In this document: positions 1 through 41,490 of the stretch, piece after piece | How the letters are laid out: the number at the start of each line of letters is the position of its first letter | Numbering within the stretch: the stretch's first letter is position 1 | NCBI GenBank assembly: GCA_977018835.1 | Contig: OZ361256.1 | Location: forward strand, 124,001 to 188,000 | Source: Minutocellus sp. GHC0000111 | Lineage: Eukaryota | Length of the DNA stretch: 64,000 bases | Reading direction: 5' to 3' | The notes under the pieces: generated by a model | The model's input: the letters and a program-made list of their open reading frames with translations, nothing else | Databases searched by the model: none | Told to the model about the DNA's origin: nothing | Translations under genes and position numbers: made by a program

Positions 1-1
1 C

Positions 2-6604: not shown

Positions 6605-6653
6605 CTATAACGCAATAAAGTCAAATCAATCCATAAATGACTAACGTCTCTCA

Positions 6654-15400: not shown

Positions 15401-18400
15401 CCGCAAAAGAAGTTTTGAAGCATGGAAGAAGCTTCAATGATAAACTTCCTGCTCATCAGGCTTTGCAGCAGGGGGCTGCGGGTGACCCATTTCTTCTAGT
15501 GCTGCCCGGATTGGCACTGCATCTTTCATGTTGAAAAACAGTCCTCCCAATTCGGCTTCAGCGGCTGAGGACGTTACATGCTTGATGACATTGGCATTGA
15601 CGAGGATGGCTCCATTCATTGGTGGCATGGGATCACTTGAGTCAGGCTGGCGGTGCGGGTGCTTAGGTCGGGAGCTTAGGTAGAAGTGCCCTCCGAGCTT
15701 GCTTCTTGATTTCGGGGCTGACAAGCAGGAGGCGTCGCTGTGCACATGTAGGATCATGTCTGACTTGACGCATCGAATGACTGCGTCGGGATGGGTTGCA
15801 AGGTAATCTAGAAGCTTCTTGGCATCTTGTCGAGTGCGCTCGGTAGCTTTGGATTGTTCCGCTGAGATGCTGTTGAGCGCCGGCAAAATTGTTGAATCAA
15901 TTGCTCGACCACAGTGCAAGGAGCTGCCCACCACCTGTTGAATTTCGTTGATGCCTTTGGCGTCGAGTGGTGGTGAGTCGTCTTCCGGTTCTGGCAGCTG
16001 GGGTCCCGGGCCATGCGTCGGACGATTCCATCGATATGGCGCATGCTCGGGCCGTGAGGGGCGGTCGTGTTGGAACTTGTGGCGCATCTCCTTGACGCAG
16101 TCAGGCATAGACAGATCCACCCATTTGGCCTCGTAGTTCCACTCGAGTTGAACACCACAACAAAGTTGGCCTTCCCAATCGGCAGTGATCTTGTACTTGG
16201 AGTTGAGGGCCTGAATGAGATGGTCTGCATGCTCTTTCCCGACATGCTTTACTCCAAAATCGTCAACGGTTAGGCAAAAGGTAATTGGGCGGGTTTTGTG
16301 CCTCCAAAGGCCGGCAGTGCGCTTGCAAGGGAAATAGCCATGGGGTTTGAGATGCTTGACAAGTTGATCGTAGGCTAGGCGCCCTGCCTGGGGTAATCCA
16401 CACATTCCGCCATCGATTCTGACCAACACTCGACCATTCTTTACTTTGTCGTGGAGGTCGTAGGCTTCCATGACTTCGTCGGGGATGAGAGCTACTGGCG
16501 CCCACATCCATTCTGGCTCTGGCATGGTGCTGTTGAGATAGAAGTCACTGACATCAATTCCCATGAAACGAGCGTTGTCTGCAGAGATGACGCTGTTGAA
16601 AAGTAACTTTGCAGTCAACATTTCAGCGGTCGGGGTCGAGACTGTACCAGGGTAATGAATTTTGTCGCCTCCTGCAGTCCATCGAACTCGATTGGGATTT
16701 GGTTTATGGGAGCGACAGTCGGCGACAATGCGGAGGCATGTGGCTTTTTCCCCCCGAGGCAGTTCGGACCAGTGGACGAAAGCCATTGCATTGGAGGGAA
16801 TGCTAGCACTGTTTCCAACTCGGCCGTCCGTTAGCCGTCCAATTTCATCGATGTTTGCTTGAATGAATTGGTCCCTCATGTTCGTTTTGAGGAGGTCGCG
16901 GTGTTCAAGCATTGCACCAGTGTCGGGATGGACGACGGCGTTAGCAAAGTGTTGGAGGTTTGGTAAAGGCGAGAACGCTGCCATGTTGGCCACGTGGTGG
17001 GCACCACGACGAGATGATGGCCGTGGGGGAGGGTTCTGATGTGGAATGTACCCTCGCTGACGGCATGATCGTCGTCGAGGTGGTTTGGCGGTCGATGGTT
17101 TGGACTTGCTTGTCGATTTTGCTGGAGCTGGCAATGTTGGAGTGGTGTCGATCGTTGGAGACTTGCGTTTACGTTGCCGACGGGAGGTGGGGGCATTGGA
17201 ACTTTGATTGGATGTTACGACGGTTGCATCGTCGTCATGATTATCATCATCGTCGCCGTTGGGCTCGTCTACTGCAGCCAAAGGATTGTAGTAGTTGGAA
17301 GAAACTGACGTTATGCTGGTGTTGGTTTTCCGGATGGTATCAAAGTCTATGACGTCTGGGCTAACAGCAGAGGCTTCGTTTGGCTTTGCAGCTCTTTCGT
17401 TTGCCTTGTGCGGTCTCGGAAAGTATGAGCTTTCGTCGTTTTGCGCCCGTATAGCTTCAGCCTTGCTCCAGAAATTTGAGCAAAAGTACTCGCACATTGT
17501 CCACTTGCTGCTGAATTGCTCTATTCTGCCCTACAGGCAGCCGCAGCAGGCATGTGTAGAGCAATTATATGCCGCTTACGAGGATGCCATGTCCGTTGGA
17601 GCTGTTGAGTGGGGCTTGGTCAACTTAGCCAGGTCTTTGCAAGCTTCATTATTCGCTCCGGATCGGAATTCTTCTTTACAGGATTATTTGGACAGAATTG
17701 CCAAAGCAAATGCAATTTTTGTTTCTTTCAAGCATCACATTTTTGTCTTGTACAACCTGTACCTTCTTCACGCTATTCCCAGTCTGATGAGCGGCGATGG
17801 AACCAGCAACCCTCTCAGTTCGCTCACGCTTAGTGAAGAGATTTTAGAGCCCTTCGACCAAAAGGCGCGTGACCATGTAATGCGTACTAGTAGAAGCATC
17901 ACACTGCATGTCTGGTTCAGCTGTCTCTTTGGCGTTTATGAGAATGCAAAAAAGCGAGTTGACGATGTTCTGAGAATTATGAAAATGAACCCCTTTGCCC
18001 CCTCCTTTGATACATACAACGAATGCTTTTATGCCGCTCTAATTGCTTTTGCGTTGCTTCGAAAGGGAGATACTGATAAAGATTACTGGGAATGCATTGC
18101 GGCAGATGTTATGGAAAAGTTCAATACGTGGGCAGCAATCGGGAGCGGATGGAACTTTAAGAGCAAGATGAGTATGCTTATTGCCGAACAAGCTTTTTAT
18201 CGTGGTGATTTTGATGCCGCCAGGGCGTCTTATTTTCAAGCTGCCCATAACGCGAGAGAGATAGGATTTATCCAAGAGGAGGCTCTTGCTTGCGAGCTTG
18301 CGGGGGACTTTCATTGCATGCGGGAAGAATTTCTGGAGGGACGTGTTTATTTGCAAAGATCCATCGAGCTATACACACGGTGGGGAGCGCGCAGAAAAGC

Positions 18401-20883: not shown

Positions 20884-23800
20884 TCTCAGCTTTACAAGTG
20901 GAGAGACCAGCTCTACAAAAGCCTTGCTGATGGCATCAGCAATCCCATCGGCAGAAAGGAGGTTCGTGGAAGGAAGAAGGCACACACGGACATGATCGAG
21001 GAGAAGGAGCCAGGATGTCTCCGCGAGCTGTGTCGGCATGCTACTCGGATGAAGGGTGCGATGGCAACCTTTAAGGAGCTAGCTGACTGCATGAGCGCAA
21101 AATCAGCTGCTCCAGATGAAGACAGGCTGACAATTAGTCTCCATCGTCTTCAGCTTTTTCGCTGGTGGAAAAAGCAAGGCGGCAAGGAGAAGTCGTCGAT
21201 CGAGAAGCCGAGGCTCACCCCCGAACATTGTAGGAAGCGACTTGATTGGATCGAAAAGTGGGAGGACATCACGACCGATCCCAACATTCCTGCAGCGTGT
21301 CTTGATGAAAAGTGGTTTCACACTGCTACTCGGCGACGAAAGATCAAGATGTTGCCACTTGCTAAGAGGTCCTAAAGCTAAGCTAGATAGATATAGCTAG
21401 TAGAGGTTAACAGGACCTACGTAGATGAAAATGGGCCATCGGAGATGTCGTTGGCCCATGGATCAACGGTCAGGAGAGGGCACTGAGTCAGTGGTCTGAT
21501 CACCGTACGTACCGTACGTATGTATACGTACGTACGTATCCCACGGTGTCAACACACCCTCGCAGATCAATGACTAGTGCCATTGAATCTACATGTAGAG
21601 TCCTAATTGGAATCTACATGTAAGTAGACTGGTCGCATGTCGACATGGTAGGGGGCGGGATGGTGCTTTGTAAAATAATCGGCCAAATTTTGCGCGCTCC
21701 TTTCCGCCAGCACACCTGGAATTGTCGTTGCTCTGTGCGATCTTGGACGCAGTGGAATCTCATGTCCATAGCCTTAGACCGTCTTTGCTTGACGGTTTTA
21801 TTGGCGATTCCAGATGCTGTAGAGTTGTCAACGACGATAGCAGCAGGGGGCTGCGGGTGACCCATTTCTTCTAGTGCTGCCCGGATTGGCACTGCATCTT
21901 TCATGTTGAAAAACAGTCCTCCCAATTCGGCTTCAGCGGCTGAGGACGTTACATGCTTGATGACATTGGCATTGACGAGGATGGCTCCATTCATTGGTGG
22001 CATGGGATCACTTGAGTCAGGCTGGCGGTGCGGGTGCTTAGGTCGGGAGCTTAGGTAGAAGTGCCCTCCGAGCTTGCTTCTTGATTTCGGGGCTGACAAG
22101 CAGGAGGCGTCGCTGTGCACATGTAGGATCATGTCTGACTTGACGCATCGAATGACTGCGTCGGGATGGGTTGCAAGGTAATCTAGAAGCTTCTTGGCAT
22201 CTTGTCGAGTGCGCTCGGTAGCTTTGGATTGTTCCGCTGAGATGCTGTTGAGTGCCGGCAAAATTGTTGAATCAATTGCTCGACCACAGTGCAAGGAGCT
22301 GCCCACCACCTGTTGAATTTCGTTGATGCCTTTGGCGTCGAGTGGTGGTGAGTCGTCTTCCGGTTCTGGCAGCTGGGGTCCCGGGCCATGCGTCGGACGA
22401 TTCCATCGATATGGCGCATGCTCGGGCCGTGAGGGGCGGTCGTGTTGGAACTTGTGGCGCATCTCCTTGACGCAGTCAGGCATAGACAGATCCACCCATT
22501 TGGCCTCGTAGTTCCACTCGAGTTGAACACCACAACAAAGTTGGCCTTCCCAATCGGCAGTGATCTTGTACTTGGAGTTGAGGGCCTGAATGAGATGGTC
22601 TGCATGCTCTTTCCCGACATGCTTTACTCCAAAATCGTCAACGGTTAGGCAAAAGGTAATTGGGCGGGTTTTGTGCCTCCAAAGGCCGGCAGTGCGCTTG
22701 CAAGGGAAATAGCCATGGGGTTTGAGATGCTTGACAAGTTGATCGTAGGCTAGGCGCCCTGCCTGGGGTAATCCACACATTCCGCCATCGATTCTGACCA
22801 ACACTCGACCATTCTTTACTTTGTCGTGGAGGTCGTAGGCTTCCATGACTTCGTCGGGGATGAGAGCTACTGGCGCCCACATCCATTCTGGCTCTGGCAT
22901 GGTGCTGTTGAGATAGAAGTCACTGACATCAATTCCCATGAAACGAGCGTTGTCTGCAGAGATGACGCTGTTGAAAAGTAACTTTGCAGTCAACATTTCA
23001 GCGGTCGGGGTCGAGACTGTACCAGGGTAATGAATTTTGTCGCCTCCTGCAGTCCATCGAACTCGATTGGGATTTGGTTTATGGGAGCGACAGTCGGCGA
23101 CAATGCTGAGGCATGTGGCTTTTTCCCCCCGAGGCAGTTCGGACCAGTGGACGAAAGCCATTGCATTGGAGGGAATGCTAGCACTGTTTCCAACTCGGCC
23201 GTCCGTTAGCCGTCCAATTTCATCGATGTTTGCTTGAATGAATTGGTCCCTCATGTTCGTTTTGAGGAGGTCGCGGATGGTTTGGACTTGCTTGTCGATT
23301 TTGCTGGAGCTGGCAATGTTGGAGTGGTGTCGATCGTTGGAGACTTGCGTTTACGTTGCCGACGGGAGGTGGGGGCATTGGAACTTTGATTGGATGTTAC
23401 GACGGTTGCATCGTCGTCATGATTATCATCATCGTCGCCGTTGGGCTCGTCTACTGCAGCCAAAGGATTGTAGTAGTTGGAAGAAACTGACGAGCGAGGT
23501 GGCGCGTTGGATCGACGTGATCGACGGCTTTTAGTGGTGGCTGCATCACATGTGGAGGATTTTGCCACCCTCGGAGGTTGCTGGGGCTGAGGAAACGGAG
23601 CGTTGGGGTTGGAGACAAGGTGACAGCCTACTTCAGTATCGTTCATCTCTTCTACGTCGTCGTCCTCGTATTTGATTTTGTAGTGCTTATACTTCTTGTC
23701 AAATGCAACGACTCCACCCTTGTAATTGCGATCTCCAAACACTTTGGCGACGATGGTACCGAGGCGGAATCGTTGGGAGTCGTCATCGTTCTCCAGCACC

Positions 23801-26800
23801 CTCGGAGCTGCGGTTGTCTGCATCGTCTCATCAGAGGCGGAGGTGGCAGATTCTGCTGGGGTCACGCTGTTGAAAATCTCGGAGAGCTTTTCTAAAGCTT
23901 GACGATGCTCGTCTCGAAGGGGAGCAAGGGGTGCCGCTGGATGTGGATTCTGTAGAGCGTGCAGGAGTTCATGAGCTGCGACTATTGCTGCATCGGCCGA
24001 CGACGTTTTGGGTACCGGAATCATTTTGGGGAGCCAGACGAGTGTGTTACCAGTGCGATCCGCCCGAGTTTCCTCAATCCAAACCTTGTAACACCGGTAG
24101 TGTTCCATGGCTGGACCGACACAGTACCCATCAACGCCATGCGGGGACCAAGAGCCGCGTGCCGAGGGCATCTCGTGAAAGATGACCTTGCATCCGAGGG
24201 GGCCGAGAGGCGTGCGATTGAAATCAAAGCCGCCATTGAGTTGCTCGTGCGCTGATAGTCGAGGGTTGACTCGGGATGCTCTCAGGAAATTGAGGGTCAT
24301 TACCGCCTGCTCCAGCAATTTATCCCACAAGATGAGGGGAAAGTCGGGATCGGCACCACAGAGAATCGCAATGAAATGATTCTTAAAGGTTCGAATGGCT
24401 CGTTCGGCCGCATTTCGGCGGTGGGAGTGCGTTGGGGGGTCAATTGAAAATCTACATCCTTTTCTTCCATGAACTCCTTCAGCTCTCGACTCACTTCATT
24501 ATCCAATCGTTGCAATTTTGGGCGAAATCCTCGCTTGGAGAGGTATTCGAAAATAGTTTGGTACGCTCGGCGCATTTCCGTTCCCGATCGGCTTTTCATT
24601 GGTTCGGCCAAGATGCTGTTGGAGTCATAGTCATAGACGACCATTATGTACTGGTGGCCAGAAATAGACGACACCAAGAAACGGCCGGGCTGATCTGAGA
24701 AGATCTGGCCCGTTATGTCATGACAATCAGCAAAGACATAGTTGGTGCGCTGTTGGTGTTGTGCCGGGTGGAGATCCTGCTCGGTTTCGTCCACCCCAGG
24801 GAGAGATTTTGGCGTAGCCATCGACCGTTTGGGCTTGGTCGACCTGATGTTCTTGCGCTGCTGGTCTAAGTGACCTTTAATCATCGGTATCGACTGTGGC
24901 ATGTGCTTACGTACAAGCTTTGATGTGAGGCCTGGCCAAGATCTATAAAATCCGCATCGATTGCTTTGCACCAGGTAGATAGCTGAGGACTGCCAGCGCA
25001 CCAATGTAAAAAGGCTACACGTTCCGGAACCGTCTCCTGGGCAATTGCGGCGTTGGCAGCATGTTGGATGACGTTGGGGCCGGGGAGCGGCGACATGGTG
25101 GGCGAGCAATTAAGATCTACCATCCACAATTTCGTTGAGGGGTCTCGTTTACCTTGCAAAATGACGGCATTGTCCTTGGCGATGACTACCGAATCCTTAT
25201 CGAAAGTGGCAATACATCCATCGTCACACAGCTGCCCAATCGATAGGAGCGATGATGCCATATTATTGAAAACATAGGCCTTGCTAGCCGATGGGGAAAC
25301 CCCAGGGAGGCGAAGCGTGGCCTCATGGGTGTTCGTCATTGTGCTATTGTCCGGAAGGGTGACGCTGACAGGAATTGCTGTCTGTTGGACGTTGAAAATA
25401 GGGCCATCGTACGATAGGTGTTGGGGCTTCTGGACAAAATGTCGTTCCAGCATCTGCTGCGAGGACAATTGGCTCTTGAGTTGGAGGTTTGCTTTTTGAC
25501 GTAAGAAAAGCTAACGAAGGCGGGGAGGAGGTGGATTCAGACATGCTGTCCTCTATTTTATACTGATTAACATCCACCGTCCCTCCCGCTCAGTTACGAC
25601 GCGAGCTACCACCGCAAGGATTGCACTTGGTGGCGTTATCAACGTGGTTGGGCCCTTTGCAAGTGCATTCAAAGCTGGGGTGGTTGGACGAATAGCCGCA
25701 CGTGTGGCAACAGTGGCCTCTGGGGAGGATCGACTGCAGTTCCCGCTTCTCCTGGCGGTTGAGGTTAGGACCTTGGCCTGGGAAGTGGCCGGTGCCGTTC
25801 TGCTGGCCACCGCCGCGGTAGCCTCCACTGCCACCAGCATGGTTGCGTCCCTCACGCAGAACGCGGTTCTCGGCCTTGAGTGAAGCTGTTTCTTGGCGAA
25901 GTTTGGCAATGGTGTCATCCTTCTCGTTGCTCTTTTTGGCGAGGTTCGCCATCATGGCTTGGTTGGTCTTGAGGGCCTCGGTGGCATCAGCCAAAAGGAG
26001 ATCGGCTCGAGAAAGAAATGGATCGTCCGAGGCCGATGAGGCCAAATTCGCGCCATGACATCCTGCCGCTTCGGTGGTGGTGTTGGCCATCTTCTCATCA
26101 CACCAATCGCGGAAGTCCGACTGCATGTTGGCCCACGTGCGTTCGGCCTCCGGTCTGTCGTCCCAGTCCTCGCATGCCTTCTTTGCCAATGAGAACCTGC
26201 GCACGGAGCGGTAGAACTTGGAGACCTTTTGCTTGTTGGTGAAGGGTTCGCCGGCCGTTTCAAACGCCTTGAAGACTTTGTTGAATGTGGCGATGTGGGT
26301 GTCGATGGGTCCCCCGTCGTGCTGCTTCTCGAGCTGCTTCTCTAATTCCTCCTTCTGAGTCTCGATGAATTTCAAGTAGCGATCGGCAGTGCTGTCGATG
26401 ATTTGGCGGATGGTGACTGGCTGGAAACCGAGCATGTAATCTTCGAGATGATTGATGCAGACGGCGTCGATCGAGTCGAGGAGGAGATTCTTGAGCACCG
26501 TGTTGACTTGCTCGCACAAGTTGCAGTGGCCCTTTTCGATGTGACATCCCCGGATTGCACGATCGCGTTGGTCTAGATTGGCCACGGCGGGAATGGTGGG
26601 GCTGGGGCCAGGATTTGCCGGAGGCACATGTGGTCGGCCGTTACTTTTGGTGGTGTGTTCGGCATCGCTGACGACGAGGCCCAAATGGCCGAGGTCACAT
26701 GGTCATTGCACCCTGCTGGAGTGCTGGCCGCCGCTTGTTGAAGTTCCTTGAGCGCTTTGGCAACACGCTCGCGTTGGGGAGGTTGTCCTGGGTCATTCAT

Positions 26801-27836
26801 ACGTGTGATTAACTTGGTGGGGAGAATCGGCGCTGCGCCGAGAGGTTGGCCAAAAACTGCGTCGGGACTCATGCTGGTGTTTCAGTCAGCGAAGACAGGC
26901 AGCACGGCGGTGTTGCTGCGAGACGTGTGATCGACAGAAGGTTCGATCCAGAGAAGTGTGATCGATTGGATGGGTCGATCTGGTCAGGACTTTCGGGGAA
27001 GGGATTGGATCGTCGTTCCAATATTGTCGAAAGAAACGGTCGTTTTGGCCGATTGAAGATGTGTCGGTTTTTCTTGCGTGACGAGTGAGAACCCAAGACA
27101 AACCGGTGAGGTGCGAACCGAAATGGGGGGCGAGCACGGGTGGAAAAGATGTATCACGTAGGTCTGCTAAGAGGTCCTAAAGCTAAGCTAGATAGATATA
27201 GCTAGTAGAGGTTAATAGGACCTAGTAGATGAAAAATGGGCCATCGGAGATGTCGTTGGCCCATGGATCAAGGGTCAGGAGAGGGCACTGAGTCAGTGGT
27301 CTGATCACCGTACGTACCGTACGTACCGTACGTATGTATATGTACGTACGTATCCCACGGCATCAACACCACTTTCTGACGAAGAACTAAGTAGTCCGAA
27401 CCTCGCGTCTGTCCATGCTTCCGAGGCAAGCCCGAAAATTCGATCCAGAAGACACCCTGTCAAAGTTATGCATCTTGGAGTTGTTGGCCGACCAATGAAG
27501 GATGAAACCAAAGACGTTGATTTCAATGGGCGCATCATGATGATCAACATGAGAGTCAGTCGCCAGGGAGCAGAAGGTGGAAAAGCTTGCGCGTAATCAG
27601 AATTTCTCTCCAGATGCTAAGGTCAACGATGCGCTAAAAAATGACAAAGATTGGCGCGACATTTACGACGAGAATGCTGACATGACCGCCGGCCATCTTT
27701 GCGACCACATTGCCGAAATCTACGGCCTTTCTGAGTTTGTTGCAGAGAGCGATTGGAACTTCAATGCGAGGACTACAAATCCGACGGTCAGGCAAAAAGT
27801 CGCAAGCATGCCGCTGTTGGCTACAACAAAAAGATC
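20884..27836. repeat. Left arm of a large inverted duplication (mirror of 29179..37856, lacking the 1737-bp tandem unit)
   Basis: Every ORF in this stretch has a mirror ORF on the other strand. Breakpoints read directly at TCTCAGCTTT (20884) and AAAGATC (27836). Confidence 0.93.
21360..27368 (-). mobile_element. Ty1/copia LTR retrotransposon (CoDi-like), inverted copy, degenerate
   Basis: LTRs 27165..27368 and 21360..21554 with TG...CA ends; TSD CCACT at 21355..21359 and 27369..27373; gag-PR-IN-RT-RH order. Confidence 0.95.
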
Positions 27837-28455
27837 CCGTGCACTTGCCCCGTTTCGTTTGATGCTGCCGTGACTTTTGAGAGGCTGGCATTTCTGAAAA
27901 TAGAAAAGACGGGAAAGCAATTTGTCTCGAACCTCGGAAACCTCGGGCAATTCGTCATTTTGTGTATGCTTTGAGAAGGGCCATTGGATACCCACATTTT
28001 GCACGACGGTCGCCGGCCGATGACTCTGCGGCATCGCAGCGCGAGCAAGGCAGCATGGCATCAGCAGGAAGCAATCCGAATGAAACTTCATCGTGAGAGA
28101 AGGTCCTATCGTCGTGCTAATATACACTGATCTAAGTTGACTCTGGCCGAAACGTACAGTTCACACAGCAGCACAAGCGCTACCTCATACCACGACCACA
28201 CCAGACCAAAAATCCAAGCTCACTTTTTCTAACTCCGAGGAATAAATGACGGCCAAGATGGAAGTCGGGGCAAGAACCAAGTTATGGTCACCAACTTCTA
28301 CATATAGTCGAGAGATATTGTGCACCAGAACCAATAAATGTACATTATGTGATGATTTTTTTCGACATTTGCATTCCTCACCCCGGGAAAAAACACACAT
28401 TTTTGGAAGCACCAAATCAAAATGTAATGAATAGAAATGGACATGCTATGATAAG

Positions 28456-29646
28456 TTATAGCAAATCAATGACTCCATCGTCTTCATCATTTTCATCTAT
28501 GTCGTCCTCAATGTCATCATCTTCGCCGGGAGCATCAATTGGCCAGAGTGGTTCACCATCCTCTTCAGCTTCTTCCTCGGCAATTTTTGCGAGACCAGCC
28601 TTTCCCCGTCTGGTCTCCACAAGATTGTTGCCGCCACGACTTCTCTTGATGTTGTTATGCATCACTGGAAGTTTTCCAAATACATTGAGAAAGGCCTCTT
28701 TTGATGCGACATTGGCCCATACTTTCATCACAGTCTTGTCAAGAGCATTCGCATCATTCTTCTGACCGCGATGCTCCTTTTCGACGGCCGACTGCAAAGA
28801 CATCCAGATGCCGAGATCAAGAACATTTGTCTCGGGCGACCGAGGAACCTGCTGGATTATCTCAATCTTACATTTGTTTTTGAGGTCCTCGGTGTACTTC
28901 TCAACTGCTTCATTGGACCCATGACCGCCGGCATTGTCCATCACAAGACATGTAACATCAGACTCCTGAATATTTTGTGGATCCCACTTCACCCAATGAT
29001 GTGCGTCTCGAATCGCCTTCCCGACCTCATTCACAGTCTCCAACATCCATTTGGAGTCGCAGCTGCAGTCCTTGGCAACCTTGTCGCCCCGTTGATGCCG
29101 CACCCCGAGCTCAAGGTCGTCGATCTCAACCTTCACCTTCTCTCCATTGCTATCAGGAGTGTGTCGCTTGAGACTCGAGATCTTTTTGTTGTAGCCAACA
29201 GCGGCATGCTTGCGACTTTTTGCCTGACCGTCGGATTTGTAGTCCTCGCATTGAAGTTCCAATCGCTCTCTGCAACAAACTCAGAAAGGCCGTAGATTTC
29301 GGCAATGTGGTCGCAAAGATGGCCGGCGGTCATGTCAGCATTCTCGTCGTAAATGTCGCGCCAATCTTTGTCATTTTTTAGCGCATCGTTGACCTTAGCA
29401 TCTGGAGAGAAATTCTGATTACGCGCAAGCTTTTCCACCTTCTGCTCCCTGGCGACTGACTCTCATGTTGATCATCATGATGCGCCCATTGAAATCAACG
29501 TCTTTGGTTTCATCCTTCATTGGTCGGCCAACAACTCCAAGATGCATAACTTTGACAGGGTGTCTTCTGGATCGAATTTTCGGGCTTGCCTCGGAAGCAT
29601 GGACAGACGCGAGGTTCGGACTACTTAGTTCTTCGTCAGAAAGTGG
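28456..29646 (-). pseudogene. DD39D transposase, C-terminal half (frameshifted)
   Basis: Carries the second and third catalytic Asp and an acidic tail; split over several frames. Confidence 0.85.
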
Positions 29647-29850
29647 TGTTGATGCCGTGGGATACGTACGTACATATACATACGTACGGTACGTACGGTA
29701 CGTACGGTGATCAGACCACTGACTCAGTGCCCTCTCCTGACCCTTGATCCATGGGCCAACGACATCTCCGATGGCCCATTTTTCATCTACTAGGTCCTAT
29801 TAACCTCTACTAGCTATATCTATCTAGCTTAGCTTTAGGACCTCTTAGCA
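29647..29850 (+). repeat. 5' LTR with a GTAC-rich palindromic microsatellite
   Basis: TGTTGA...TTAGCA. It has one more 9-bp GTACGTACG unit than the 3' LTR. Confidence 0.95.
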
Positions 29851-30142
29851 GACCTACGTGATACATCTTTTCCACCCGTGCTCGCCCCCCATTTCGGTTC
29901 GCACCTCACCGGTTTGTCTTGGGTTCTCACTCGTCACGCAAGAAAAACCGACACATCTTCAATCGGCCAAAACGACCGTTTCTTTCGACAATATTGGAAC
30001 GACGATCCAATCCCTTCCCCGAAAGTCCTGACCAGATCGACCCATCCAATCGATCACACTTCTCTGGATCGAACCTTCTGTCGATCACACGTCTCGCAGC
30101 AACACCGCCGTGCTGCCTGTCTTCGCTGACTGAAACACCAGC

Positions 30143-31413
30143 ATGAGTCCCGACGCAGTTTTTGGCCAACCTCTCGGCGCAGCGCCGATTCTCCCCACCA
30201 AGTTAATCACACGTATGAATGACCCAGGACAACCTCCCCAACGCGAGCGTGTTGCCAAAGCGCTCAAGGAACTTCAACAAGCGGCGGCCAGCACTCCAGC
30301 AGGGTGCAATGACCATGTGACCTCGGCCATTTGGGCCTCGTCGTCAGCGATGCCGAACACACCACCAAAAGTAACGGCCGACCACATGTGCCTCCGGCAA
30401 ATCCTGGCCCCAGCCCCACCATTCCCGCCGTGGCCAATCTAGACCAACGCGATCGTGCAATCCGGGGATGTCACATCGAAAAGGGCCACTGCAACTTGTG
30501 CGAGCAAGTCAACACGGTGCTCAAGAATCTCCTCCTCGACTCGATCGACGCCGTCTGCATCAATCATCTCGAAGATTACATGCTCGGTTTCCAGCCAGTC
30601 ACCATCCGCCAAATCATCGACAGCACTGCCGATCGCTACTTGAAATTCATCGAGACTCAGAAGGAGGAATTAGAGAAGCAGCTCGAGAAGCAGCACGACG
30701 GGGGACCCATCGCCACATTCAACAAAGTCTTCAAGGCGTTTGAAACGGCCGGCGAACCCTTCACCAACAAGCAAAAGGTCTCCAAGTTCTACCGCTCCGT
30801 GCGCAGGTTCTCATTGGCAAAGAAGGCATGCGAGGACTGGGACGACAGACCGGAGGCCGAACGCACGTGGGCCAACATGCAGTCGGACTTCCGCGATTGG
30901 TGTGATGAGAAGATGGCCAACACCACCACCGAAGCGGCAGGATGTCATGGCGCGAATTTGGCCTCATCGGCCTCGGACGATCCATTTCTTTCTCGAGCCG
31001 ATCTCCTTTTGGCTGATGCCACCGAGGCCCTCAAGACCAACCAAGCCATGATGGCGAACCTCGCCAAAAAGAGCAACGAGAAGGATGACACCATTGCCAA
31101 ACTTCGCCAAGAAACAGCTTCACTCAAGGCCGAGAACCGCGTTCTGCGTGAGGGACGCAACCATGCTGGTGGCAGTGGAGGCTACCGCGGCGGTGGCCAG
31201 CAGAACGGCACCGGCCACTTCCCAGGCCAAGGTCCTAACCTCAACCGCCAGGAGAAGCGGGAACTGCAGTCGCTCCTCCCCAGAGGCCACTGTTGCCACA
31301 CGTGCGGCTATTCGTCCAACCACCCCAGCTTTGAATGCACTTGCAAAGGGCCCAACCACGTTGATAACGCCACCAAGTGCAATCCTTGCGGTGGTAGCTC
31401 GCGTCGTAACTGA
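30143..31413 (+). pseudogene. gag: gag (frameshift near 30320), with coiled coil and C-terminal Cys/His knuckle
   Basis: Lies after the 5' LTR; motifs RTWANMQSDF, AAGCHGAN and CHTCGY...H.S.EC....H...AT..N..GGS are typical of diatom copia gag. Confidence 0.8.
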
Positions 31414-34400
31414 GCGGGAGGGACGGTGGATGTTAATCAGTATAAAATAGAGGACAGCATGTCTGAATCCACCTCCTCCCCGCCTTCGTTAGCTTTTCTT
31501 ACGTCAAAAAGCAAACCTCCAACTCAAGAGCCAATTGTCCTCGCAGCAGATGCTGGAACGACATTTTGTCCAGAAGCCCCAACACCTATCGTACGATGGC
31601 CCTATTTTCAACGTCCAACAGACAGCAATTCCTGTCAGCGTCACCCTTCCGGACAATAGCACAATGACGAACACCCACGAGGCCACGCTTCGCCTCCCTG
31701 GGGTTTCCCCATCGGCTAGCAAGGCCTATGTTTTCAATAATATGGCATCATCGCTCCTATCGATTGGGCAGCTGTGTGACGATGGATGTATTGCCACTTT
31801 CGATAAGGATTCGGTAGTCATCGCCAAGGACAATGCCGTCATTTTGCAAGGTAAACGAGACCCCTCAACGAAATTGTGGATGGTAGATCTTAATTGCTCG
31901 CCCACCATGTCGCCGCTCCCCGGCCCCAACGTCATCCAACATGCTGCCAACGCCGCAATTGCCCAGGAGACGGTTCCGGAACGTGTAGCCTTTTTACATT
32001 GGTGCGCTGGCAGTCCTCAGCTATCTACCTGGTGCAAAGCAATCGATGCGGATTTTATAGATCTTGGCCAGGCCTCACATCAAAGCTTGTACGTAAGCAC
32101 ATGCCACAGTCGATACCGATGATTAAAGGTCACTTAGACCAGCAGCGCAAGAACATCAGGTCGACCAAGCCCAAACGGTCGATGGCTACGCCAAAATCTC
32201 TCCCTGGGGTGGACGAAACCGAGCAGGATCTCCACCCGGCACAACACCAACAGCGCACCAACTATGTCTTTGCTGATTGTCATGACATAACGGGCCAGAT
32301 CTTCTCAGATCAGCCCGGCCGTTTCTTGGTGTCGTCTATTTCTGGCCACCAGTACATAATGGTCGTCTATGACTATGACTCCAACAGCATCTTGGCCGAA
32401 CCAATGAAAAGCCGATCGGGAACGGAAATGCGCCGAGCGTACCAAACTATTTTCGAATACCTCTCCAAGCGAGGATTTCGCCCAAAATTGCAACGATTGG
32501 ATAATGAAGTGAGTCGAGAGCTGAAGGAGTTCATGGAAGAAAAGGATGTAGATTTTCAATTGACCCCCCAACGCACTCCCACCGCCGAAATGCGGCCGAA
32601 CGAGCCATTCGAACCTTTAAGAATCATTTCATTGCGATTCTCTGTGGTGCCGATCCCGACTTTCCCCTCATCTTGTGGGATAAATTGCTGGAGCAGGCGG
32701 TAATGACCCTCAATTTCCTGAGAGCATCCCGAGTCAACCCTCGACTATCAGCGCACGAGCAACTCAATGGCGGCTTTGATTTCAATCGCACGCCTCTCGG
32801 CCCCCTCGGATGCAAGGTCATCTTTCACGAGATGCCCTCGGCACGCGGCTCTTGGTCCCCGCATGGCGTTGATGGGTACTGTGTCGGTCCAGCCATGGAA
32901 CACTACCGGTGTTACAAGGTTTGGATTGAGGAAACTCGGGCGGATCGCACTGGTAACACACTCGTCTGGCTCCCCAAAATGATTCCGGTACCCAAAACGT
33001 CGTCGGCCGATGCAGCAATAGTCGCAGCTCATGAACTCCTGCACGCTCTACAGAATCCACATCCAGCGGCACCCCTTGCTCCCCTTCGAGACGAGCATCG
33101 TCAAGCTTTAGAAAAGCTCTCCGAGATTTTCAACAGCGTGACCCCAGCAGAATCTGCCACCTCCGCCTCTGATGAGACGATGCAGACAACCGCAGCTCCG
33201 AGGGTGCTGGAGAACGATGACGACTCCCAACGATTCCGCCTCGGTACCATCGTCGCCAAAGTGTTTGGAGATCGCAATTACAAGGGTGGAGTCGTTGCAT
33301 TTGACAAGAAGTATAAGCACTACAAAATCAAATACGAGGACGACGACGTAGAAGAGATGAACGATACTGAAGTAGGCTGTCACCTTGTCTCCAACCCCAA
33401 CGCTCCGTTTCCTCAGCCCCAGCAACCTCCGAGGGTGGCAAAATCCTCCACATGTGATGCAGCCACCACTAAAAGCCGTCGATCACGTCGATCCAACGCG
33501 CCACCTCGCTCGTCAGTTTCTTCCAACTACTACAATCCTTTGGCTGCAGTAGACGAGCCCAACGGCGACGATGATGATAATCATGACGACGATGCAACCG
33601 TCGTAACATCCAATCAAAGTTCCAATGCCCCCACCTCCCGTCGGCAACGTAAACGCAAGTCTCCAACGATCGACACCACTCCAACATTGCCAGCTCCAGC
33701 AAAATCGACAAGCAAGTCCAAACCATCCGCGACCTCCTCAAAACGAACATGAGGGACCAATTCATTCAAGCAAACATCGATGAAATTGGACGGCTAACGG
33801 ACGGCCGAGTTGGAAACAGTGCTAGCATTCCCTCCAATGCAATGGCTTTCGTCCACTGGTCCGAACTGCCTCGGGGGGAAAAAGCCACATGCCTCAGCAT
33901 TGTCGCCGACTGTCGCTCCCATAAACCAAATCCCAATCGAGTTCGATGGACTGCAGGAGGCGACAAAATTCATTACCCTGGTACAGTCTCGACCCCGACC
34001 GCTGAAATGTTGACTGCAAAGTTACTTTTCAACAGCGTCATCTCTGCAGACAACGCTCGTTTCATGGGAATTGATGTCAGTGACTTCTATCTCAACAGCA
34101 CCATGCCAGAGCCAGAATGGATGTGGGCGCCAGTAGCTCTCATCCCCGACGAAGTCATGGAAGCCTACGACCTCCACGACAAAGTAAAGAATGGTCGAGT
34201 GTTGGTCAGAATCGATGGCGGAATGTGTGGATTACCCCAGGCAGGGCGCCTAGCCTACGATCAACTTGTCAAGCATCTCAAACCCCATGGCTATTTCCCT
34301 TGCAAGCGCACTGCCGGCCTTTGGAGGCACAAAACCCGCCCAATTACCTTTTGCCTAACCGTTGACGATTTTGGAGTAAAGCATGTCGGGAAAGAGCATG

Positions 34401-35400
34401 CAGACCATCTCATTCAGGCCCTCAACTCCAAGTACAAGATCACTGCCGATTGGGAAGGCCAACTTTGTTGTGGTGTTCAACTCGAGTGGAACTACGAGGC
34501 CAAATGGGTGGATCTGTCTATGCCTGACTGCGTCAAGGAGATGCGCCACAAGTTCCAACACGACCGCCCCTCACGGCCCGAGCATGCGCCATATCGATGG
34601 AATCGTCCGACGCATGGCCCGGGACCCCAGCTGCCAGAACCGGAAGACGACTCACCACCACTCGACGCCAAAGGCATCAACGAAATTCAACAGGTGGTGG
34701 GCAGCTCCTTGCACTGTGGTCGAGCAATTGATTCAACAATTTTGCCGGCACTCAACAGCATCTCAGCGGAACAATCCAAAGCTACCGAGCGCACTCGACA
34801 AGATGCCAAGAAGCTTCTAGATTACCTTGCAACCCATCCCGACGCAGTCATTCGATGCGTCAAGTCAGACATGATCCTACATGTGCACAGCGACGCCTCC
34901 TGCTTGTCAGCCCCGAAATCAAGAAGCAAGCTCGGAGGGCACTTCTACCTAAGCTCCCGACCTAAGCACCCGCACCGCCAGCCTGACTCAAGTGATCCCA
35001 TGCCACCAATGAATGGAGCCATCCTCGTCAATGCCAATGTCATCAAGCATGTAACGTCCTCAGCCGCTGAAGCCGAATTGGGAGGACTGTTTTTCAACAT
35101 GAAAGATGCAGTGCCAATCCGGGCAGCACTAGAAGAAATGGGTCACCCGCAGCCCCCTGCTGCTATCGTCGTTGACAACTCTACAGCATCTGGAATCGCC
35201 AATAAAACCGTCAAGCAAAGACGGTCTAAGGCTATGGACATGAGATTCCACTGCGTCCAAGATCGCACAGAGCAACGACAATTCCAGGTGTGCTGGCGGA
35301 AAGGAGCGCGCAAAATTTGGCCGATTATTTTACAAAGCACCATCCCGCCCCCTACCATGTCGACATGCGACCAGTCTACTTACATGTAGATTCCAATTAG
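31414..35400 (+). pseudogene. pol: pol (protease, integrase, Tudor-like module, RT, RNase H), multiple frameshifts
   Basis: AADAG and SLLSIGQLCDDGC (protease); DQPGRF, YDYDSN, LDNE (integrase); GLPQAG, VDDFG (RT); SDAS, SAAEAE, DN, NLADYFTK (RNase H, the last motif in a shifted frame after ~35306). Confidence 0.92.
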
Positions 35401-37291
35401 GACTCTACATGTAGATTCAATGGCACTAGTCATTGATCTGCGAGGGTGTGTTGACACCGTGGGATACGTACGTACGTATACATACGTACGGTACGTACGG
35501 TGATCAGACCACTGACTCAGTGCCCTCTCCTGACCATTGATCCATGGGCCAACGAGTGCTAGCATTCCCTCCAATGCAATGGCTTTCGTCCACTGGTCCG
35601 AACTGCCTCGGGGGGAAAAAGCCACATGCCTCAGCATTGTCGCCGACTGTCGCTCCCATAAACCAAATCCCAATCGAGTTCGATGGACTGCAGGAGGCGA
35701 CAAAATTCATTACCCTGGTACAGTCTCGACCCCGACCGCTGAAATGTTGACTGCAAAGTTACTTTTCAACAGCGTCATCTCTGCAGACAACGCTCGTTTC
35801 ATGGGAATTGATGTCAGTGACTTCTATCTCAACAGCACCATGCCAGAGCCAGAATGGATGTGGGCGCCAGTAGCTCTCATCCCCGACGAAGTCATGGAAG
35901 CCTACGACCTCCACGACAAAGTAAAGAATGGTCGAGTGTTGGTCAGAATCGATGGCGGAATGTGTGGATTACCCCAGGCAGGGCGCCTAGCCTACGATCA
36001 ACTTGTCAAGCATCTCAAACCCCATGGCTATTTCCCTTGCAAGCGCACTGCCGGCCTTTGGAGGCACAAAACCCGCCCAATTACCTTTTGCCTAACCGTT
36101 GACGATTTTGGAGTAAAGCATGTCGGGAAAGAGCATGCAGACCATCTCATTCAGGCCCTCAACTCCAAGTACAAGATCACTGCCGATTGGGAAGGCCAAC
36201 TTTGTTGTGGTGTTCAACTCGAGTGGAACTACGAGGCCAAATGGGTGGATCTGTCTATGCCTGACTGCGTCAAGGAGATGCGCCACAAGTTCCAACACGA
36301 CCGCCCCTCACGGCCCGAGCATGCGCCATATCGATGGAATCGTCCGACGCATGGCCCGGGACCCCAGCTGCCAGAACCGGAAGACGACTCACCACCACTC
36401 GACGCCAAAGGCATCAACGAAATTCAACAGGTGGTGGGCAGCTCCTTGCACTGTGGTCGAGCAATTGATTCAACAATTTTGCCGGCACTCAACAGCATCT
36501 CAGCGGAACAATCCAAAGCTACCGAGCGCACTCGACAAGATGCCAAGAAGCTTCTAGATTACCTTGCAACCCATCCCGACGCAGTCATTCGATGCGTCAA
36601 GTCAGACATGATCCTACATGTGCACAGCGACGCCTCCTGCTTGTCAGCCCCGAAATCAAGAAGCAAGCTCGGAGGGCACTTCTACCTAAGCTCCCGACCT
36701 AAGCACCCGCACCGCCAGCCTGACTCAAGTGATCCCATGCCACCAATGAATGGAGCCATCCTCGTCAATGCCAATGTCATCAAGCATGTAACGTCCTCAG
36801 CCGCTGAAGCCGAATTGGGAGGACTGTTTTTCAACATGAAAGATGCAGTGCCAATCCGGGCAGCACTAGAAGAAATGGGTCACCCGCAGCCCCCTGCTGC
36901 TATCGTCGTTGACAACTCTACAGCATCTGGAATCGCCAATAAAACCGTCAAGCAAAGACGGTCTAAGGCTATGGACATGAGATTCCACTGCGTCCAAGAT
37001 CGCACAGAGCAACGACAATTCCAGGTGTGCTGGCGGAAAGGAGCGCGCAAAATTTGGCCGATTATTTTACAAAGCACCATCCCGCCCCCTACCATGTCGA
37101 CATGCGACCAGTCTACTTACATGTAGATTCCAATTAGGACTCTACATGTAGATTCAATGGCACTAGTCATTGATCTGCGAGGGTGTGTTGACACCGTGGG
37201 ATACGTACGTACGTATACATACGTACGGTACGTACGGTGATCAGACCACTGACTCAGTGCCCTCTCCTGACCATTGATCCATGGGCCAACG
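33818..37291 (+). repeat. Tandem duplication, 1737-bp unit (RT-RNase H plus partial LTR 35449..35555)
   Basis: ORF ends at 35389 and 37126 differ by 1737; junction GGGCCAACG|AGTGCTAGC at 35555. Confidence 0.93.
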
Positions 37292-37305
37292 ACATCTCCG
37301 ATGGC

Positions 37306-38961
37306 CCGTTTTCATCTACGTAGGTCCTGTTAACCTCTACTAGCTATATCTATCTAGCTTAGCTTTAGGACCTCTTAGCAAGTGGCAACATCTTGATCTT
37401 TCGTCGCCGAGTAGCAGTGTGAAACCACTTTTCATCAAGACACGCTGCAGGAATGTTGGGATCGGTCGTGATGTCCTCCCACTTTTCGATCCAATCAAGT
37501 CGCTTCCTACAATGTTCGGGGGTGAGCCTCGGCTTCTCGATCGACGACTTCTCCTTGCCGCCTTGCTTTTTCCACCAGCGAAAAAGCTGAAGACGATGGA
37601 GACTAATTGTCAGCCTGTCTTCATCTGGAGCAGCTGATTTTGCGCTCATGCAGTCAGCTAGCTCCTTAAAGGTTGCCATCGCACCCTTCATCCGAGTAGC
37701 ATGCCGACACAGCTCGCGGAGACATCCTGGCTCCTTCTCCTCGATCATGTCCGTGTGTGCCTTCTTCCTTCCACGAACCTCCTTTCTGCCGATGGGATTG
37801 CTGATGCCATCAGCAAGGCTTTTGTAGAGCTGGTCTCTCCACTTGTAAAGCTGAGAGCCACCGGTTGACTTGGCATGACCGTGATCGTGCGCAACTTGCC
37901 GACACGCGGCAGTTGCAATTTGTTGCCGGTCTTCATGCGTGCGAGTTGGGTCGCCGTGTCCCCACCAATCCGCGAGAGCCACGGCGCTGAACCGCATTCT
38001 TTCATTCGCCTGCTTTTCTTTTCTGATTGGCATTGGTTCGGTGACGGTTGCATTGGGACGAGGAGGACGGAGCATGTCATCGTTGGCCATCCGAACAACA
38101 AAGTCGAGGCCGAGAGCGACCTTTACCTGTTCACCATTTTCATCTACGTAGGTCCTGTTAACCTCTACTAGCTATATCTATCTAGCTTAGCTTTAGGACC
38201 TCTTAGCAAGTGGCAACATCTTGATCTTTCGTCGCCGAGTAGCAGTGTGAAACCACTTTTCATCAAGACACGCTGCAGGAATGTTGGGATCGGTCGTGAT
38301 GTCCTCCCACTTTTCGATCCAATCAAGTCGCTTCCTACAATGTTCGGGGGTGAGCCTCGGCTTCTCGATCGACGACTTCTCCTTGCCGCCTTGCTTTTTC
38401 CACCAGCGAAAAAGCTGAAGACGATGGAGACTAATTGTCAGCCTGTCTTCATCTGGAGCAGCTGATTTTGCGCTCATGCAGTCAGCTAGCTCCTTAAAGG
38501 TTGCCATCGCACCCTTCATCCGAGTAGCATGCCGACACAGCTCGCGGAGACATCCTGGCTCCTTCTCCTCGATCATGTCCGTGTGTGCCTTCTTCCTTCC
38601 ACGAACCTCCTTTCTGCCGATGGGATTGCTGATGCCATCAGCAAGGCTTTTGTAGAGCTGGTCTCTCCACTTGTAAAGCTGAGAGCCACCGGTTGACTTG
38701 GCATGACCGTGATCGTGCGCAACTTGCCGACACGCGGCAGTTGCAATTTGTTGCCGGTCTTCATGCGTGCGAGTTGGGTCGCCGTGTCCCCACCAATCCG
38801 CGAGAGCCACGGCGCTGAACCGCATTCTTTCATTCGCCTGCTTTTCTTTTCTGATTGGCATTGGTTCGGTGACGGTTGCATTGGGACGAGGAGGACGGAG
38901 CATGTCATCGTTGGCCATCCGAACAACAAAGTCGAGGCCGAGAGCGACCTTTACCTGTTCA
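37306..38961. repeat. Tandem duplication, 828-bp unit (LTR end + transposase fragment)
   Basis: ORF ends at 37365 and 38193 differ by 828; junction CTGTTCA|CCATTTTCATC at 38133/38134; second LTR end at 38208. Confidence 0.93.
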
Positions 38962-39881
38962 TCAATGTCACTGGAGGTGGCACAGACAACGGAAGTATCG
39001 GCTCCTCCTAAACCTTCATCATTGGGGGAGGCTGCAGCTGCTTCAGTGGCGGAAGTGTCACCAGTTCCCTTCAGCATGCTGAGGAGACTTGCTGGCATCC
39101 AACCCAGTTTCTTGGCCTCGTCGACTAGTGATTTTGCTCTTGCTTCGCAATGCGCTGACTGCACCTCCTTTCTGTGAGCTGACAACCTCTCACCTAGCTT
39201 AGTAGCTAAGACAGTCGAGCGCCCAGAGAACAGAACTTCATCGGGATTTCTTTTCTCGTGCACCTTCTGTCCCTCCGGTCCAGAGAATTTCGGGTGGTTG
39301 TCCTCCTTCTTTTTACGCAACCTGTGAGCACAAACACAAAGCGCCCTGCGTCTTGTCTTCCCTCTCGGCCGACACGTCGACAAGTAAGTGCAACTTCAAA
39401 CTACAATGCTCCTTGAGATGTTGCTGCACATCCTTCCATTTTTCCTCGTTGCACTGTAGCTCATGCTTTCCTCCACCGACGGACTTGGAACGCAACAAGT
39501 CGGCCTCGATGAAAGCAGGGAGGACGTCTTCCCATTTCTGCCGAGAACCAACACAAATGTCACCTTTGCCGCAGGAATCGGGGGTTACTCTCCACCACAG
39601 ATCCTTACGAGCCCTTCGAATGACATCTGCTGCAAGGAGAAAGGCCATGGGGATAGGAGGAGGGGCCGTCCTCTTCTTCGCCGACGACGGTGACGGTTTG
39701 GCGGGGGCGAATTTGACCGTGGCCGCTTCTTCGACGTGTTTGCGCTCGGCGATGGTGTTTTCGGCTCAGCTGCCGCCTTTGCCGCCTTCCTGGATGCCTT
39801 GGTGTTGCCTCTCTTGCTCCCTGAGAACGAAGTTCTGCTGCGTTTGTATTTTTTGGGCGTGGTCTGGTTGGTCGTCGTCAT
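38209..39881 (-). pseudogene. DD39D transposase, N-terminal half (frameshifted)
   Basis: Overlapping ORFs 39585..39935, 39313..39648 and 38193..39383 lead to KPRLT..H...RL.W and LDEKWF. Confidence 0.75.
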
Positions 39882-40168
39882 CGTCACAAAACTTGCGGGT
39901 TGCGGTGAGGGTGTGCGGGGGACCAAAAAATACATGTGTTCCTGCCAGAATCTACTGGACCTGCGAATTCAGTGGATACTACTGGTCGGTGGCAACCTAC
40001 TGAATGAGCAGGTCCAGTAGATATCCACGAGTTGAGGAGTGTTTGCGTTCCTCCCGAAGAGAACATCGACTAACAAAACACGTGGTGGGAAATGAGAAAT
40101 GGGTGCAAGAATGACCTTTTTTAGGGGTTATTGGTATACCCTCTACAAATCCTCTGAAACCGAAAGGT

Positions 40169-41490
40169 ATGATGGACAGGCGCGTTCTCAGCGATGCCGT
40201 GGCTACAATCCAGCGCCTCGTCCGCCGTCGAGACAACCACGCCATATTTGTGCCGACACTCGCCATCATCTTCTTTCTCACCATTGTCCTTTCCAAGCTC
40301 GATCATTCCCCGTACGACTACGGCCTCGCCGCCTTCCGTTCCTTGGTTTCGTCCACCCTCATTTTGTCGAATGATCAGTATCTGACACCTCCCCCTCCTC
40401 CCAAGATGTTGTCGTTGGCCGAAACCATATCAATGTGCTACCCGCTGACCGACGAGGAGCAGTACGAGCAGCAGATCAAGATGCTGGCATCGTACGAGAC
40501 CAGCGAGAAGCAATATCCGCAGATGGCATCCGACGTGCGAGATCTGGCCTCGTTGAATCCTCGCCATACTGGTATTTTGCATTATTTGTCCACCCGCGTC
40601 TTGCGCCCTCAGTGGTCCATTCTGGACTTGGGTTGTGGCACTGGGGATGTCCTGCAAGAAATTCAGGACTACTACCTTCGCCTTCAGCAGCAGCACGATG
40701 AAGGAATGGTTGCAAAGCCCAGTGAAGAGATTGAATTGATGACATCGTCGGTATCTCTTCGTGGACAAGTATTTGTAGGCGTTGAGATTGTGGAAAATTA
40801 CATCCAAGAAGCAGAGTTGGTATTGAAGCCTAGAGGCATCGACATGTTTCAAGGTGAGTTGAGAGATTGTTGCATATTATTGCCATAATTGCATGCCATT
40901 CCTCTGACTTCTTATACATTTACTCTTTCTATCCCTCATCTTTTTCAGGCGACATAACCGACTTCGACCTTCCTGAACCCTATGAAGGCGCTACGTTTGA
41001 TTTCATCATGCTAAATGATGTTGTCGAGCACATCCAGCGCGGCCGATTTGGCTGCCTGTTCCTCAAGTTACAAGCGCTAACCCATGCAGGGTCTCTCGTT
41101 TACATGCACACACCCACCCCCGAGGCTCAGCTGTATAGACATTCTTTTCCAAGCACCATTACTCCGATAGCTGTCGATGCTGATTCCGATTCCCACGCCG
41201 ATGCCGGTGACAAGAATGACAACGAAGAAGGGAAGGACCGTAGCAGACTTCTCACCGAGAGGTCAAATGTTCTGCCCCACCACTTCATCTTTACAGGCAT
41301 GGCCATGGCAGGGTTTGAGCTGGTGGAGATGGAGATGGACACGCAAACCAATTGTGGTGGCCGAGTTTACAACTTAAACAGAATGCCTCAATCGTTTGAT
41401 ATGTCGGCATGCAATGTCGGCGGATATACCAAATACGCCCACATGGTATTTCGAAGAGCGTTAGATGAAAAGGTATTTGAAATGGACTGA
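40169..41490 (+). CDS. Membrane-anchored class I SAM-dependent methyltransferase, intron 40854..40948
   Basis: N-terminal TM; ILDLGCGTG, GVEI, FDFIMLNDVVEHI. The GTGAGT...TTTCAG intron gives FQGDITDF. Confidence 0.85.

Follow-up and report, generated by a model that had tools for sequence, protein, structure and literature searches.

The DNA discussed here is a 64,000-nucleotide window (contig OZ361256.1, positions 124,001 to 188,000) from the diatom Minutocellus sp. GHC0000111, in which a copia retrotransposon sits nested inside the gene of a Tc1/mariner-type transposase. We found that both elements have been hypermutated at TpA steps, which became TpG or CpA, and that the target is set by both flanks of the step, in the order RTAY > YTAY > RTAR > YTAR (R, purine; Y, pyrimidine). 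The changes are restricted to the elements and absent from the host genes tested. A reading of the sequence alone (hereafter the sequence-only reading) had quoted motifs with Cys (TGY) or His (CAY) where the element families have Tyr (TAY), and all of these motifs are present in the translations.

The loss of tyrosine is clearest in the reverse transcriptase (RT)/RNase H region, where we considered the 17 columns that hold Tyr in at least 80% of 119 relatives. At these columns the window copy has 7 Tyr, 6 Cys, 3 His and 1 Trp. Whether intact relatives might carry Cys or His there was a doubt that the sequence-only reading had raised against itself; for the most part they do not, as 108 of the 121 aligned rows have none and nine have one, the higher counts being those of P0037 (4), P0108 (4), P0001 (6) and the window (9). 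In six sister RT proteins, 90-95% identical, one and the same column can read Tyr, Cys or His, and the combinations differ between proteins; 15 sister transposases likewise have Tyr, Cys or His at one column.

The transposase copies allowed us to measure how specific the changes are. For this comparison we took the window copy together with 15 members of the 275-strong transposase cluster, using the 503 columns where two intact relatives agree, and because the copies share ancestry its counts are copy-sites rather than independent events. Tyr sites were changed in 108 of 235 cases (Tyr>Cys 46 and Tyr>His 62 across the 16 copies, with 13 of the 62 His lying in one column fixed for His), against 4 of 2,568 in nine other A/T dinucleotide tests on the same proteins, which settles a second doubt of the earlier reading, that A>G at TpA might be no commoner than other transitions. 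A>G at the second codon position was practically absent after C (His>Arg 0/93, Gln>Arg 0/192), A (Asn>Ser 1/212, Lys>Arg 1/540) and G (Asp>Gly 1/456, Glu>Gly 0/441), as was T>C at the first position before T (Phe>Leu 1/102), C (Ser>Pro 0/316) and G (Cys/Trp>Arg 0/216, from 0/72 and 0/144). Since sites other than TpA are practically unchanged, a general drift towards GC is excluded, and so is hypermutation of the Pol eta WA type, which makes A>G at both TA and AA: AA/TT sites were hit in only 3 of 854 cases.

The two strands are hit equally. Tyr codons preceded by a purine now read 54 Cys, 54 His and 61 Tyr (these counts by preceding base drop five columns that have neither Tyr nor Cys, with 55 His and 1 Arg), in agreement with the proposal that TA>TG and TA>CA are one A:T>G:C change seen from either strand. 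All changes in the Tyr columns of the transposase copies are transitions, and mutated Tyr sites have neighbours of the same type in 51 of 103 cases, compared with 50.3 +/- 4.4 in shuffles, so that one-strand bursts are not seen. As the strands are equally affected in a DNA transposon, RNA editing and RT error are excluded, and the earlier suggestion of a DNA-level process acting on a retrotransposon and a DNA transposon alike is upheld; clustered one-strand edits of the ADAR/APOBEC type were rejected on the same grounds, there being no runs of one type of change.

What precedes and follows the TpA step matters. The mutated T was preceded by a purine in 32 of 33 DNA events, a set that favours rarely hit sites. 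Transposase Tyr codons were changed at 108 of 169 copy-sites after a purine and at 12 of 96 after a pyrimidine, and the RT copies gave 39/51 and 15/70, respectively. Thr>Ala changes occurred at 23 of 73 copy-sites after a codon ending in T and at 2 of 169 elsewhere; for Asn>Asp and Lys>Glu, taken together, the count behind a T was 1 in 47. At the non-Tyr sites, chosen as those where the window still reads TA, the A-centred contexts were hit in 9/36 cases for RTAY, 9/66 for YTAY, 6/83 for RTAR and 0/86 for YTAR. The earlier idea that every TpA is a target was thus right about the step and too broad about its context, RTAY being the best target and YTAR being spared; a strict RTA-only rule is equally too simple, given the RTAR and YTAR counts. 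The Thr>Ala change proposed for the protease (DTG to DAG) is likely; GAT GCT GGA is indeed present at 31549, where relatives among 79 metagenome loci have Thr in 10 cases, Ser in 9 and Ala in 2.

TpA has been only partially erased from the elements. Its observed/expected ratio (o/e) is 0.25-0.31 in gag and transposase and 0.48-0.57 in pol, a modest depletion next to the 0.55-0.61 of host DNA; CG o/e across the elements is about 0.8-1.1. The RTAY class is a sharper signal than overall TA o/e: it accounts for 25 of 179 TA in the elements outside the long terminal repeats (LTRs), whereas host coding DNA has 198 RTAY among 545 TA (p=5e-9) and other host DNA 89 among 277; in the RT region its share is 0.09 in the window and 0.18-0.50 in the 79 related loci. 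Positions 30841-31140, which had been described as free of TA, have a count of zero, and the TA-free run extends over 393 bp (30790-31183) of the gag-like open reading frame (ORF). Along the window RTAY numbers 0-5 per 500 bp in the elements and recovers at the element edges and in the LTRs, which retain 24 TA, 12 of them RTAY, in 205 bp. A GTAC-rich tandem array in the LTRs belongs to the best target class, but 12 RTAY remain there, and the LTRs seem to be shielded by something. The two LTRs differ at one dinucleotide that is TG in one and CA in the other and at one TAT/TGT site, which fits mutation after insertion, although the TG/CA difference could derive from CG; LTR differences of CG>CA type are also seen.

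The direction of change was read from contigs of four public runs from four studies, aligned to 27840-35440. Run X1 had transitions at 122 of 134 differing places, and among the 40 best-supported of 181 differences examined, 14 have C in the window and T in the reads before A, and 14 have G in the window and A in the reads after T, a strand balance of 14 to 14 at the DNA level; the others are one C/T before T, five T/C at a present or former TA, and six transversions. In 28 of the 29 C>T/G>A rows of these best 40 the read majority restores TA and not CG, where 27-31% would be the background for this context. Since the common state is TA and not CG, decay of CpG is excluded, and the direction is opposite to that in repeat-induced point mutation (RIP) and in 5-methylcytosine (5mC) deamination, as had been claimed. 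Deamination of methylated transposons at CpG was therefore rejected, with one LTR site ambiguous, because other copies read TA at the sites.

Two of the four runs are Illumina RNA libraries, and their contigs carry some mutated alleles at full share (29543, 31441 and 31448), so the mutated alleles are not the errors of one assembly. At 29543-29544, 31441 and 31448 the mutated alleles that have full share in the RNA-run contigs are a minority or half in the DNA runs, and most of the transcripts may come from one copy that was already mutated, bearing in mind that contigs as such cannot show transcription. The notion that expressed copies are pristine is unsupported, since the RNA-run contigs have A>G/T>C differences of their own, at 51 places in run X7 and 45 in run X10. 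In three runs that cover the host DNA the contigs depart from it by a few letters per kilobase or less, so these runs come from this organism or a very close strain; run X18 was set aside as it spans 7 of 30 host bins. Three runs diverge from the window sequence at 8903.

Host controls, which are small and come from within the window only, show little or no such bias. The CCA-adding enzyme keeps its conserved tyrosines in 6 of 6 cases, 4 of them in RTAY, in line with the earlier remark that host genes retain their motif tyrosines. We examined 40 of the 44 rows of host differences in 1-12400, removed 15 as paralogue cross-mapping, and among the 25 left found 12 transversions and 13 transitions, 3 of the latter in RYA context (background 10.8%); an equal bias in host DNA, the third doubt that the sequence-only reading had voiced, is thus not what we see. 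A 7.3-kb host duplicate has 30 mismatches, of which 16 are transitions, 5 at TA and 6 at CG, and older host paralogues are without TA bias.

Beyond these two elements the pattern is patchy. Cluster P0037 shows it (21 of 22 variable columns are of the expected types), as does P0108, and it is absent from clusters P0003, P0004 and P0145. Among 150 representatives at 50% identity, 5 have at least three Cys/His at Tyr columns, and the protein pattern recurs in four further copia families of this set, whose identity to the query family is 42-65%; in the copia families P0477, P0508, P0434 and P0474, 5-9 conserved Tyr have become Cys or His, and P0477 has a Tyr content of 0.3%. None of the 79 metagenome loci has more than two Cys/His at 20 Tyr columns, and sibling pairs among them have CpG-type spectra, in a scan that is biased against mutated copies since its pattern omits the Cys form of one motif, that covers the best 80 of 565 matches and that relies on short-read contigs, which collapse copies. 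Universality across diatom copia elements is thus unsupported, with 0 of 79 loci affected.

The mutational load varies widely, from 3/21 to 18/21 sites per copy, and is overdispersed, with 0 of 5000 shuffles as uneven. It also differs between the halves of the transposase, the 5' part being hit at 88 of 108 sites and the 3' part at 21 of 71. Local CpG density and mutation frequency were not correlated over 31 columns (rho 0.17, p 0.36). From the absence of strand-coordinated runs and the range of loads we infer a slow, site-by-site accumulation after insertion.

The copia element lies on the + strand within a minus-strand transposase gene, with the 5-bp target-site duplication AGTGG on either side (29642..29646, within the transposase gene, and 37381..37385, both +). 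Its 5' LTR (29647..29850, +, TG...CA), where 12 of 24 retained TA sites are RTAY, is followed by a gag-like ORF with a frameshift close to its start (30143..31413, +, TA o/e 0.25), labelled gag from its position and a Cys/His knuckle-like motif, with no Pfam gag match. The protease and integrase region (31493..33752, +) is in three overlapping frames and, with a TA o/e of 0.57, is the least depleted part; it has indels relative to the reads at 31559, 32049 and 32564, and its integrase is named from the alignment context of relatives, the window copy having no Pfam integrase match. Behind the integrase, at about 33243-33374, there is a Tudor-like PF21743 stretch (PTM/DIR17-like, E 7e-11), and at the equivalent place P0037 and P0108 have what we take to be a chromodomain-like stretch; these are possibly chromatin-reading domains. 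RT/RNase H follows (33749..35400, +; RVT_2, under the curated cut-off in the window copy) with a frameshift at 35306, then a 100% identical tandem repeat (35555..37292, +) of 33818-35555, that is of RT/RNase H and the LTR start, and the 3' LTR (37186..37380, +), with 6 mismatches to the 5' LTR. TG...CA LTRs, a 5-bp target-site duplication, integrase ahead of RT/RNase H and RVT_2 place the element in the Ty1/copia class.

The transposase gene is split into a 5' part through the first catalytic Asp, with the DEKW motif (37386..39900, -, TA o/e 0.28, with an internal duplication 37306-38142 / 38134-38970), and a 3' part with the second and third catalytic Asp (28191..29641, -, TA o/e 0.31), which are spaced by 39 residues (DD39D, counted on P0142). 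Its relatives match Tc-type Pfam families (HTH_Tnp_Tc3_2 in 11/31, DDE_3 in 6/31) and it has a weak SETMAR match (E 0.59); neither the window pieces nor P0142/P0143 has a Pfam transposase match, and terminal inverted repeats were not found, inverted matches between the end regions not exceeding 9 bp; the ends may have been lost. An inverted duplicate of the transposase pieces and the entire copia (20884..27839, -) is 99.75-100% identical and has identical mutations, duplicates within 20884-39900 differing by 2-4 mismatches per pair; with such identity the window holds one mutated copy of each element, and its copies were ruled out as independent evidence. An extra mutated RT-region piece (15465..17310, -, 99.9% identical) lies in a host AAA-ATPase gene; it shares the mutations of the other copies and was rearranged into place after they arose, and RTAY depletion ends at its borders. 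This piece retains a 193-bp segment (16901-17094) absent from the other copies. Both elements are also frame-broken by small indels relative to the reads, and five 2-bp insertions at short repeats (28393, 29266, 29885, 32564 and 35306) disrupt the frames independently of the TpA process.

The host genes of the window are diatom-like (DUF6824 with AAA_16, JmjC-ankyrin and GT8 by Pfam), and over 281 residues the CCA-adding enzyme shares 90% identity with a cluster that includes an Extubocellulus spinifer protein, as against 55-65% with named Thalassiosirales, which points to a cymatosiroid diatom as the likely host. Inverted paralogous DUF6824/AAA_16 genes, 64-84% identical, occupy 6654-11393 and 12446-18449, and a GT-AG intron at 1793-1948 is shown by an RNA contig of run X10. 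Two further repeats, a 2.5-kb tandem repeat of 100% identity (41085-46145) and the 7.3-kb repeat of 98.9% identity around a 200-N gap (47241-64000), are likely haplotype or assembly duplications.

As to the cause, we lean, if only modestly, towards a host enzyme acting on silenced mobile DNA through adenine deamination, either direct or via N6-methyladenine. Such an enzyme would act on the DNA of silenced elements after their insertion, deaminating the adenine of TpA, with or without prior methylation, which would then be copied as G; hypoxanthine pairs with C, which predicts transitions only. Each event would strike a single site of double-stranded DNA, the load growing with copy age or exposure, and targeting would depend on chromatin state or foreignness rather than on repeat pairing. 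The effect is probably one of defence, given that roughly half the Tyr codons, along with many for Thr, Ile and Met, are recoded, with no stops made. We favour adenine deamination because only transitions occur and because an A-deaminase has been proposed for the similar process of Bigelowiella natans (bioRxiv 10.64898/2026.01.13.699255, main text). Diatom transposons are described as CG-methylated islands dependent on DNMT5 (PMC9998398), and these islands would be a plausible address for the enzyme.

Several points weigh against this explanation. A>G with a 5' T and T>C with a 3' A are indistinguishable from sequence, and no candidate enzyme was found within the 64-kb window. Processive single-strand deaminases leave strand clusters, unlike what is seen here. 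The natural DNA editor ADAT2 of amphioxus is reported to prefer GAA and to edit C at TCG (PMC10354150), ADAR is reported to prefer UAG (PMC10661471), and neither preference matches RTAY. The missing correlation with CpG density gives the link to CG methylation no support. Transcribed copies seem not to be pristine, as RNA-run contigs of two studies carry mutated alleles, and a transposase cluster of 275 members means that the process did not stop the spread of the element. The sample of host single-nucleotide differences is small and leans slightly upward (3 in RYA context versus 1.4 expected), and shared ancestry makes the copy-site counts overstate the number of independent events.

The main rival is thymine chemistry, in which a TET/JBP-type dioxygenase would oxidise the T of RTA to 5-hydroxymethyluracil (5hmU) or 5-formyluracil, a silencing mark that would incidentally give T>C by mispairing with G. 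We think it unlikely. In its favour, the rule reads equally well as RTA>RCA (32/33), and a mark on double-stranded DNA suits a strand-symmetric, site-by-site accumulation. The Tyr columns are without transversions, whereas formyluracil yields some; TC sites are also unhit (Ser>Pro 0/316; Asp/Glu>Gly 1/897). Dinoflagellate 5hmU is TET/JBP-made and repeat-enriched, and is reported to replace T preferentially in TA and TC (PMC11572971, in passages that do not mention diatoms).

A separate question is the trigger, and here a RIP-like homology trigger, by which any duplicated sequence would be paired and mutated at TpA, is compatible with either chemistry. Both targets are high-copy, and the four further copia families and cluster P0037 share the protein pattern, but we judge this rather unlikely: the 7.3-kb host duplicate and the older paralogues show no TA bias (a weak point, since these duplicates could be haplotypes, products of the assembly or very recent), the LTRs, which are repeated most of all, are spared, and the target in B. 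natans is single-copy according to the main text of the preprint (bioRxiv 10.64898/2026.01.13.699255). The repeat-directed trigger of the sequence-only reading is thus conjectural.

There might also be no dedicated mutator, the changes being a passive by-product of failed repair or translesion synthesis at a common TpA lesion in silenced chromatin. Confinement to the elements, the lack of clustering and the unevenness (88/108 versus 21/71, LTRs spared) would suit such a process, but more than 100-fold TpA specificity, a graded palindromic flank rule, the exclusion of the Pol eta pattern and the purely CpG-type spectra of related elements in other hosts make it distinctly improbable. Base-calling or polishing errors at modified TpA in a long-read assembly are a very remote and largely refuted explanation, because, although the window has exact duplications and small indels that most reads lack and the sister proteins are on Mb-size contigs that may share one assembly, mutated alleles occur in the Illumina RNA runs from two studies, at minority share in two further runs and in the Logan-derived protein P0223, one site is Cys in one copy and His in another, and the RTAY sites of LTRs and host genes come out as TA.

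Compared with known systems, the closest is that of B. natans, where Mettrop et al. describe TpA>TpG/CpA hypermutation in two integrated viral regions, at a rate of ~6e-7 per site per generation, ~1000-fold above background, in mutation-accumulation lines, the process being active in a subset of lines and TpA-depleted genes being enriched in DDE-endonuclease and reverse-transcriptase domains (bioRxiv 10.64898/2026.01.13.699255, main text). The uneven load of the copies described here is compatible with such ongoing activity. The process described here has every testable feature of that one (A:T>G:C changes limited to TpA, both outcomes, restriction to mobile DNA) and, as there, consists almost exclusively of TpA>TpG and TpA>CpA transitions on both strands of foreign DNA only. 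In that chlorarachniophyte the evidence is de novo mutations in a single-copy insertion of a nucleocytoplasmic large DNA virus (NCLDV) and in a virophage region, with transposons implicated by composition alone; here, in a window that has no viral insertion, a diatom, multicopy transposons of class I and class II followed copy by copy, and a flank hierarchy are added. The signature itself, whose novelty the sequence-only reading could not confirm, was already in that preprint, whose main text does not mention diatoms, flanks or sequence context, though its Table S2, on 231 mutations, may show flanks. We found no further description of a TpA>TpG/CpA process in the literature searched, which covered few subscription journals.

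Fungal RIP, known from ascomycetes, converts CpA to TpA, making stops and AT-rich DNA, with a homology trigger, a premeiotic timing in the sexual cycle and a methyltransferase of the RID/DNMT4 type. The process in Minutocellus resembles it as a dinucleotide-specific transition hypermutation of transposons that acts at the DNA level and recodes genes, and differs in going from TpA to CpA or TpG, with no stops and a gain of GC; C>T at CpA was rejected since the majority and conserved state is TA and the derived one TG or CA, so the process is RIP-like in purpose but not RIP. ADAR and APOBEC have RNA or retro-cDNA as their substrate and produce runs of edits on one strand; they share with the present case deaminase-type transitions in a short context, ADAR also favouring a 5' U, but here both strands are equal, runs are absent, a DNA transposon is hit and a pyrimidine follows the A. 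Dinoflagellate 5hmU silencing, as described in PMC11572971, is likewise repeat-enriched with a preference for TA, but it is a mark, not described as a mutator, and also occurs at TC, which is unhit here. Of the elements themselves, the retrotransposon, which we take to be of the diatom CoDi type, is like diatom copia in its order of LTR, gag, protease, integrase, RT and RNase H, its TG...CA LTRs and its 5-bp target-site duplication, and unlike most copia relatives, which keep their tyrosines; the transposase resembles DD39D Tc1/mariner transposases in its DEKW...D39D triad.

The range of a process that we found described from one alga now takes in diatoms and both classes of transposon, and RTAY > YTAY > RTAR > YTAR is a measurable fingerprint, usable for picking the enzyme by comparison of species. 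This genome offers the process at a midway stage, with loads that vary over hundreds of copies, which makes it useful. Since the TG/CA products mimic CpG decay and leave frames open, inference of methylation, dating of transposons and annotation will be misled in such genomes. Should the chemistry be adenine deamination, this enzyme would count as a naturally occurring DNA A-to-G editor. More tentatively, and with doubt prevailing, diatoms and chlorarachniophytes could share an ancient genome-defence system that steers an adenine editor of double-stranded DNA, preferring the palindrome RTAY, to silenced transposons and viruses and irreversibly recodes them; it would be RIP's mirror image, with a natural counterpart to the DNA A-to-G editors that have so far come only from engineering.

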